Source of the DNA: a virus
IMG/VR virus record: IMGVR_UViG_3300031949_000004
Span: 1 to 30,223 of that record
Length of the DNA stretch: 30,223 bases
Reading direction: 5' to 3' (one strand)
Positions 162-2,780 of this stretch are shown one piece after another. Position numbers and translations under genes: made by a program. Under the pieces are notes generated by a model. The model was not told the DNA's origin, ran no database searches, and saw nothing but the letters and a program-made list of their open reading frames with translations. The stretch's first letter is position 1; each line of letters starts with the position of its first letter.

Positions 162-2780
162 ATGCCAAACGGACACTACGAAGACGCCCCCGCTACGAAG
201 TTGGTTGCGACTCATTGCTGTTGTTGTGGTCGGGCGCTGCTCGACGCTCAATCGGTGGAGATCGGGATCGGTCCGGTCTGCCGTGAGAAGTTTGGTTTCG
301 TTGGCGCGATGGTCTCGCCGGAAGCGCGCGAAGAGGCGAACAAGTTGGTGTACCAGATCGCCTGCGCGCCCACGATGAGTGCCGCCTTGATCTTGCGCCT
401 GCGCGAGCTGGGTTTCGTGAAGCTCGCGGATCGCATCGCCGAGTGCGCGAAGACGGCCTGCGAGGCTGAGCTGGTGAACGGCGAGATCAGGCTTTTCACC
501 ACGAAGGACGCGAAGACGATCTTGACGATCAAGACCACGGCAGACTGGGTGAAGGGACAGAGGCGTTGGGATCCAATCAACCGTTGCTGGGCGCTCGACG
601 AACGAGCTGCCCGCGCCGTGGTACCCGCGCTGGAGCAGATCGGGATCTACATCAAGCGATCTGCCGAGGTCGAGGCTCTGCTTGACAGGCCCGAGGTTTC
701 GCAAGCTGGGCAGTTCGAGCAGGGGGGTGGTTTTGGTGAAGGTGGTGGCCGGGGCGCGATGGGCGTGGTGGTGCCGCTGTCGAAGCCGCAAGTCAACTAC
801 CGCTGGGTGGTGAACGGTGACAAGGTCTCGATCACGACGCCGTACAATGCGTCGGCCGTGGAGTCGCTCAAGGCGGCGTCGACGGGTTGCTATCGTAGGT
901 TCGACGGCGTCACCAAGTCGTGGATCGTGGATCTCTCGGCGGCGGCCAAGGTGGCAGAGGTCCTGCGTCCGTTCTTCCCTGGTTTGTCGGACGAGATGCT
1001 GGCGGACGAACGTATCAAGTCGGCAGCTCCCGCGCGGTTGGATCGCTGGTCGGTGATCGGGGATCGCGTGTCGATCTCAACGCCCTATAATCCGGAGGTG
1101 GTGACGGTCATCAAGAGCGCGGCGTTGGGTGCCTGTCGTTTCGATGGTGATAGCAAGGCGTGGCTCGTGGAGCTGAACGTGGCCGCTAACGTTGCGAAGG
1201 CCCTGTTTCGGTTCTTCCCCGCGTTGTCGAACGAGATGTTGGCGGATGTTCGTATCGCTGGTGAGGCCGAGGCTCGCGAGGAGCGGGTGCAGCTTTCGAC
1301 GGCCGCCGAGATCCAGGATGGCGGGCCGGGCGCCGAGATCGCTGCGCGGCTTAAGGCGCTGCTGCCCGAGGGTTGCGTACCGTATCCCTATCAGATTGTC
1401 GGGGCAACGTTCTTTGAGGCCGCCAAGGGTCGGGCGCTCAACGCCGATGTCATGGGTCTGGGCAAGACGATCCAGGCGCTTCTCTGGCTGGCCCTGCATC
1501 CGGAGCTTGAGCGCGTGCTCATCGTGGTGCCGGCGTCGCTTACCATCAACTGGTTGCGTGAGATCTGCAAGTGGTTGCCTCAGTTCACAGCGTCGATCAC
1601 CAGGAATGGTAAGGACAAGATCCAGGCGACCAAGATCGTGGTCACGTCCTATGAGTGCGCCACGCGCCGGAAGGCTGAGTGGATCTCCTGGGCTCCAGAG
1701 GCCGTGATCCTTGACGAGTGCCACTACCTCAAGAATACGAAGTCGCAGCGTACCAAGGCGATTGTGGGTGTCGAAGCTAGCAAGGACAAGAAGACGGGTG
1801 AGATGACGCCGGCCGTGGACGGGATTGCAACGCATGCTGCGCACGTCATCGCTCTGTCCGGGACGCCGATGCTCAATCGCCCGATCGAGCTTTACACGAC
1901 CTTGCACATGATCACACCGACGACGTTCGCGAGTTTTTTCGGTTTCGCGAAGCGGTACGCGGGGGCCGAACAGACGAAGTTTGGTTGGGACTTCAAGGGT
2001 GCCTCGAATGTCGAGGAGCTGCGAGCCAGGCTCTCCAACATCATGATCCGCCGCGAGAAGTCGCAGGTGCTCGCCGAGCTGCCCCCGAAGCGCCGAGCCC
2101 AGATCGCCGTGCAGCTCAGCAACGAGGCCGATTACGCGGCGTACGAGGAGGATGCAAAAGATCGGTTCACGAACAAGGAGCGCACGGGCGAGCGGTACAA
2201 GGGCGACGTGCTCGTGGCGCTCGGCAAGATGCGCATGCTCGCGGGGCTCGGCAAGGTCGAGGCGGCGGTCGAGTGGCTCTCGAACGCGGACATGCCCGTG
2301 GTGGTGTTCTGCCATCATCAAGAGGTCGTGGATGCCATTGCCGAGGCACTGACCAAGGCGGAGATCACCTGGGTGGCGGTCACGGGCAAGGTGGGCGTGG
2401 AAGCTCGTCAGGCTGCCGTGGATGCGTTTCAGGCAGATCAGGCGCGCGTGTTTTTGGGCACCTACGGTGCGGCAGGCGTCGGGTTGACCCTGACGGCGGC
2501 GAGCGATACCCTGCATGTGGAGCGGGCGTGGACGCCAGCGGCGGAGGAGCAGGCGGAAGATCGCTGCCACCGTATTAGTCAGAAGGAATCGGTCACCTCC
2601 TGGTACATGGTGTCGGACGTATCGATCGATGCGAAGTTCCAGGCGCTCGTTGAGGCTAAGCGGGCGACGATTAGCTCCGTGATGGACGCGGCCGGGTTGC
2701 TGGGTATCGAGGGTGGTGACAACGAGTCGTTGACCGGTGATCTGGCTTGCGAGATCTTCGGGAAGGGTGTGTGGGGCTGA
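162..2780 (+). CDS. SNF2-family ATPase/helicase with an N-terminal zinc ribbon and two tandem HARP-like repeats (SMARCAL1-like annealing-helicase architecture)
   Basis: 872 aa. N-terminus has CCCCGRALLDAQSVEIGIGPVCREKF (CxxC...GPxC ribbon). Two roughly 75-aa repeats: VSITTPYNASAVESLKAASTGCYRRFDGVTKSWIVDLSAAAKVAEVLRPFFPGLSDEMLADERI and VSISTPYNPEVVTVIKSAALGACRFDGDSKAWLVELNVAANVAKALFRFFPALSNEMLADVRI. SNF2 motifs: LNADVMGLGKTIQAL (motif I), ILDECHYLKN (DExH), plus C-terminal helicase motifs (LGTYGAAGVGLTLTAASD, ERAWTPAAEEQAEDRCHRISQ). RBS ggagaa precedes the ATG. Confidence 0.85.
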   Translation: MPNGHYEDAPATKLVATHCCCCGRALLDAQSVEIGIGPVCREKFGFVGAMVSPEAREEANKLVYQIACAPTMSAALILRLRELGFVKLADRIAECAKTACEAELVNGEIRLFTTKDAKTILTIKTTADWVKGQRRWDPINRCWALDERAARAVVPALEQIGIYIKRSAEVEALLDRPEVSQAGQFEQGGGFGEGGGRGAMGVVVPLSKPQVNYRWVVNGDKVSITTPYNASAVESLKAASTGCYRRFDGVTKSWIVDLSAAAKVAEVLRPFFPGLSDEMLADERIKSAAPARLDRWSVIGDRVSISTPYNPEVVTVIKSAALGACRFDGDSKAWLVELNVAANVAKALFRFFPALSNEMLADVRIAGEAEAREERVQLSTAAEIQDGGPGAEIAARLKALLPEGCVPYPYQIVGATFFEAAKGRALNADVMGLGKTIQALLWLALHPELERVLIVVPASLTINWLREICKWLPQFTASITRNGKDKIQATKIVVTSYECATRRKAEWISWAPEAVILDECHYLKNTKSQRTKAIVGVEASKDKKTGEMTPAVDGIATHAAHVIALSGTPMLNRPIELYTTLHMITPTTFASFFGFAKRYAGAEQTKFGWDFKGASNVEELRARLSNIMIRREKSQVLAELPPKRRAQIAVQLSNEADYAAYEEDAKDRFTNKERTGERYKGDVLVALGKMRMLAGLGKVEAAVEWLSNADMPVVVFCHHQEVVDAIAEALTKAEITWVAVTGKVGVEARQAAVDAFQADQARVFLGTYGAAGVGLTLTAASDTLHVERAWTPAAEEQAEDRCHRISQKESVTSWYMVSDVSIDAKFQALVEAKRATISSVMDAAGLLGIEGGDNESLTGDLACEIFGKGVWG
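786..1257 (+). repeat. Intragenic tandem duplication (period about 244 nt) encoding the two HARP-like modules
   Basis: The repeats at about 800 and 1044 nt are similar at the DNA level (cgctgggtggtgaacggtgacaaggtctcgatcacgacgccgtacaat vs cgctggtcggtgatcggggatcgcgtgtcgatctcaacgccctataat) and at the protein level. Confidence 0.8.

Follow-up and report, generated by a model that had tools for sequence, protein, structure and literature searches.

A probable SMARCAL1/HARP homologue with three HARP domains and an SNF2 motor in a phage-like replication module

An open reading frame in IMG/VR virus record IMGVR_UViG_3300031949_000004 raises the question of whether an enzyme resembling the eukaryotic annealing helicase SMARCAL1 may be carried by a phage. 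The gene (162..2780, + strand) was analysed together with the window, i.e. the whole stretch of 30,223 nucleotides in which it lies. It starts with ATG, has a GGAG sequence 9-12 nt upstream and encodes 872 amino acids, arranged as a DUF6011 module, a helical linker, three HARP-like domains and an SNF2 ATPase; the identical protein (P0001) was obtained from an independent gene call on an ENA contig. Judged by its sequence, the 872-aa reading frame is real and its SNF2 ATPase motifs are intact. We consider it probable that the product is a phage-borne SMARCAL1/HARP homologue, namely an SNF2 dsDNA translocase with intact motifs, three HARP substrate-recognition domains and DUF6011, which would act in annealing and fork remodelling.

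The N-terminal module and the SNF2 motor

The N-terminus had been described in the first-pass annotation as a zinc ribbon. Its motif, CxxCGRxL...S...GIGPxC, is present at aa 15-45 (204..296, +) within a match to Pfam DUF6011 (PF19474, E 2.4e-10, 40.2 bits against a cutoff of 26.6), and CxxCGRxL...GIGPxC is conserved in the motif alignment of 23 homologues, so that by sequence the module belongs to this family. Only three cysteines (CxxC...C) are invariant across the 23 homologues, therefore a zinc ribbon, which needs four ligands, is unproven. The candidate fourth ligand, the His of a THP motif, occurs in most homologues and is absent from the lineage of the window, which has H18 and extra Cys instead. 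The AF2 model predicts a β-hairpin followed by helix-GIG hairpin-helix, and HhH-like DNA binding is a possible role of the module. RPA is absent from bacteria, hence an RPA32-binding motif is not expected here. The module is followed by a three-helix linker region (aa 53-96; 318..449, +; AF2 helices at 53-68, 74-82 and 86-96, pLDDT ~85), for which a Pfam search returned no family match.

The motor comprises lobe 1 with the inter-lobe region (aa 405-684; 1374..2213, +) and lobe 2 (aa 698-845; 2253..2696, +), both delimited by Pfam (SNF2-rel_dom at aa 427-684, E 6.7e-31; Helicase_C at aa 698-805, E 9e-12), by invariant alignment columns and by collinearity with SMARCAL1. Lobe 1 contains Q411, the Walker A sequence GLGKT (432-436), DECH (518-521) and SGTP (566-569), and lobe 2 contains motif VI, QAEDRCHRISQ (797-807); none of the motifs Q, I, II, III and VI varies in the homologue alignment. 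In BLASTP, the motor is collinear with that of metazoan SMARCAL1 at 33% identity over 451 aa (9% gaps, 221 bits). With phmmer, SMARCAL1 scores 205 bits, about twice any other solved SNF2 protein (the best one of another subfamily reaches about 100 bits, at most 101), and among the best 120 hits SMARCAL1 proteins are the only named eukaryotic ones. Similarity scores, as opposed to a formal subfamily phylogeny, thus assign the motor to the SMARCAL1 subtype, and its ATPase motifs are intact.

The match to PHROG family phrog_62, 'DNA helicase' (E 1.2e-107), fits a rival explanation: the protein may be a generic phage SNF2 DNA helicase that serves to initiate replication, remodel origins or displace proteins, and whose HARP-like units would be general DNA binders only and would confer no annealing or fork-remodelling activity. 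Related SNF2 motors labelled only as helicase occur in hundreds of cultured phages, and in some relatives the place of HARP is taken by an N-terminal domain resembling DUF5710, which suggests that the DNA-binding heads are interchangeable. Such a head is found in the phage SNF2 helicases Rhodothermus RM378 p104 and Thermus MN1_610 (motor identity 35-37%); it is shorter, and its similarity to metazoan HARP is not significant (hhalign 3.7%). This N-terminal GFRWDPxxKxW domain aligns with the phage HARP-like units discussed below (hhalign 89%), and on the strength of this alignment the two are probably distantly related. However, in SMARCAL1 itself, HARP together with the SNF2 motor is enough for annealing activity, and the transplantation of its two HARP domains conferred this activity on other SNF2 proteins (PMC4035279). 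In the window protein both of these parts are significantly homologous to those of SMARCAL1, and we regard a generic helicase as unlikely, albeit as the strongest competitor of the SMARCAL1/HARP reading.

The repeats as HARP domains

The two tandem repeats reported in the first-pass annotation are real and carry the motif quoted there. They are located at aa ~212-290 (unit R1; 795..1031, +) and aa ~293-372 (unit R2, adjoining the motor; 1038..1277, +) and are 55% identical in amino acids and 66% in nucleotides. A third, divergent copy was missed at aa 99-171 (R0; 456..674, +); the repeat count is three, not two. R0 aligns with the R1/R2 profile (hhalign 97.5%, P 7.6e-12), with other phage units (96.4%) and with metazoan HARP (65%, P 5.9e-5), and is separated from R1 by a Gly-rich linker predicted to be disordered (aa 182-210; 705..791, +; pLDDT < 50). 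AlphaFold predicts three confident β-β-α-β-β-α units, with R0 folding at 99-159 (pLDDT ~90), R1 reaching pLDDT 96 as a single-domain model, and R2 adopting the fold of R1 at 296-348. Each unit contains a Trp, W136 in R0, W253 in R1 and W334 in R2, the last of which is conserved. Structural matches of R1 in BFVD include phage proteins named HepA-related.

The proposed resemblance of the repeats to the HARP domains of SMARCAL1 was borne out at the level of profiles and not at that of the single sequence. The protein itself matches Pfam HARP at aa 224-267 with E 0.029 and 14.3 bits, below the PF07443 gathering threshold of 25, and no other domain family in Pfam overlaps the repeats. The outcome that the first-pass annotation had named as refuting the idea, a lack of any significant HARP profile hit together with a match to an unrelated domain, did not arise. 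An R1/R2 profile, built from six close homologues only, aligned with 48 metazoan SMARCAL1 HARP units over 57 columns (hhalign 96.6%, P 6.2e-10), whereas reversed and shuffled controls gave at most 2.3%. A profile of 55 phage and prokaryotic units (A1) behaved similarly against metazoan HARP (96.4%), and its best match among PDB sequences was 4o66, the SMARCAL1 HARP structure (E 0.0019). Individually, 7 of the 55 A1 units match Pfam HARP (best E 5.2e-5), and an HMM iterated from the repeats finds two eukaryotic SMARCAL1 proteins, in both of which it falls on the region assigned to Pfam HARP. The A1 search recovered 6038 protein clusters; nine were sampled, of which seven exceeded the Pfam HARP gathering score (27-55 bits against 25).

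It could still be argued that the repeats are an unrelated small α/β DNA-binding fold that arrived at an RxWD...KxW motif by convergence. The sub-threshold Pfam score would agree with this, as would the fold searches: Foldseek found no PDB match for the R1 model at E < 0.06, and 4o66 was absent from PDB fold-search results that contained many generic ferredoxin-like matches. Against convergence stand the profile-profile significance with clean controls, the first rank of 4o66 in the sequence comparison, the retrieval of proteins above the curated Pfam threshold, and the identical placement directly upstream of a SMARCAL1-type motor, which together make it highly improbable. By profile comparison, the repeats are HARP domains. 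The SMARCAL1-like domain order noted earlier is likewise upheld: about 40 aa lie between the end of R2 and the Q motif, as in the related protein P0080, and the predicted HARP array is immediately N-terminal to the motor.

From the similarity of the repeats at the DNA level, it had been suggested that the duplication was recent or kept homogenised. A DNA repeat finder does pair 895-1016 with 1135-1256 (73% identity, spacing 240 nt). However, orthologous copies are 74-76% identical while paralogous ones are only 54-60% identical, and the same codon is used at 22 of 39 identical degenerate residues, against 17.9 expected from codon usage; the DNA similarity is no greater than the protein similarity predicts. 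Because of these two comparisons a recent or homogenised duplication was rejected, and the sequences indicate an old one without homogenisation.

Relatives and genomic setting

The number of HARP units varies among relatives. Three are present in the lineage of the window (P0001-P0004) and two in P0005 and P0006, while a set of phage and metagenomic proteins of about 670 aa (P0007-P0040, phrog_62; 31-41% identity) shares the DUF6011 motif and has one unit each, directly before the motor. Another metagenomic group (P0244, P0246, P0253, P0240, P0241) consists of multi-HARP SNF2 proteins and stand-alone triple-HARP proteins, with two or three tandem units, with or without the SNF2 motor; these exceed the Pfam HARP threshold, have no detectable DUF6011 and fall into separate 50%-identity clusters. 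A tblastn search of 50,697 phage records with the HARP region (aa 95-375) returned nothing with an E value of 1 or lower, i.e. a close copy of the triple-HARP array is in no cultured phage among these records. Literature searches returned nothing on DUF6011, nor on the HARP domain together with SMARCAL1 and bacteriophage.

The first-pass annotation had considered the architecture notable. It is less so, because HARP-like units occur in the 6038 clusters and HARP-type SNF2 ATPases had already been proposed to be of prokaryotic origin (PMC3417536); other multi-HARP SNF2 proteins, triple-HARP ones included, exist too. The gene is a rather typical member of an extensive, uncharacterised phage/prokaryote family, and for the gene itself the value of the analysis lies mainly in improved annotation. 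More broadly, together with the thousands of related clusters it shows how common HARP-SNF2 proteins are in phage-like replication modules. Such proteins would be small, bacterially expressible models of the coupling between HARP junction recognition and an SNF2 motor, and with the natural series, which runs from one HARP unit through two to three, the contribution of the extra copies could be tested.

The element has a protein-primed-type PolB and a strong strand asymmetry. Besides PolB, the window encodes ParB, an exonuclease, nucleotide-metabolism genes and a second SNF2 protein, in which a search for a HARP unit found none; the contigs of relatives are phage-like and carry RNR, HNH and inteins. 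The gene thus lies in a replication module of phage-like character, and the contig that carries P0001 is 194 kb long.

The SNF2 core is shared with RapA/HepA, ZorD, DrmD and DpdE, from which the protein differs in accessory domains and gene neighbourhood. A ZorD-, DrmD- or DpdE-like role in an anti-phage or inter-element conflict system on a mobile element is suggested by PADLOC models of ZorD, DpdE and DrmD that match the motor (E 1e-29 to 1e-46). These matches are limited to the shared core, the NCBIfam equivalog scores are far under their cutoffs (ZorD 88.6/1500, DpdE 66.8/500, DrmD 61.9/950), there is neither a nuclease domain nor a defence partner gene nearby, and the neighbours are replication genes; on score and gene context this role was rejected as barely credible. 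An equally negligible chance is left, on score and context, to a RapA/HepA-like RNA-polymerase-associated ATPase remodelling transcription complexes: SMARCAL1 was originally named after its similarity to HepA (PMC9368896) and one related phage protein is annotated as 'RNA polymerase-associated protein', but for RapA the NCBIfam model scores 32.7 bits where its cutoff is 576, no RapA structure is among the best 60 PDB matches, and the N-terminal domains of RapA differ.

Proposed role and comparison with known systems

For the SMARCAL1/HARP homologue, homology points to the ATP-driven re-annealing of strands, together with the remodelling of forks or branches, as the most likely activity. By analogy with SMARCAL1 (PMC4035279), the motor-adjacent HARP unit would hold the enzyme at ss/ds junctions such as forks, bubbles, D-loops and gaps, and ATP-driven translocation would then re-zip complementary strands and branch-migrate. 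SSB-coated bubbles might thus be rewound, and stalled forks regressed or restored, while the element replicates, much as T4 UvsW does. DUF6011 and the additional HARP units, which occupy the place of the eukaryotic RPA-binding motif, are likely to contribute further DNA contacts or to bring the enzyme to the replisome. A bolder proposal, which we hold to be distinctly unlikely, is that the DUF6011-HARP-SNF2 proteins of large phage-like elements are true annealing helicases close to the prokaryotic stock that gave rise to eukaryotic SMARCAL1, and that the triple-HARP enzyme re-anneals SSB-coated displaced strands. If true, re-annealing after strand-displacement replication would be a role without a described phage counterpart.

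The motor of T4 UvsW is a different SF2 helicase, not an SNF2 one, and only one domain precedes it; the window protein shows no detected sequence homology to UvsW. The fold of 4o66 has relatives in UvsW, XPB and MutS. According to a 2022 review of fork regression, no prokaryotic homologue of SMARCAL1 is known (PMC9368896). Comparative genomics had earlier led to the proposal that HARP-type SNF2 ATPases passed from prokaryotic selfish elements to eukaryotes (PMC3417536). SMARCAL1 likewise has its HARP domain or domains directly N-terminal to a compact SNF2 motor. It differs in carrying an RPA-binding motif where DUF6011 is found here, and the present protein belongs to a phage/prokaryotic setting and has single-sequence units too divergent for the Pfam HARP threshold. 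Tandem HARP duplication occurs in vertebrates too (PMC4035279); SMARCAL1 has one or two units, duplicated independently, and we propose that the array of three described here arose by a lineage-specific duplication, independent of the vertebrate HARP1/HARP2 pair.

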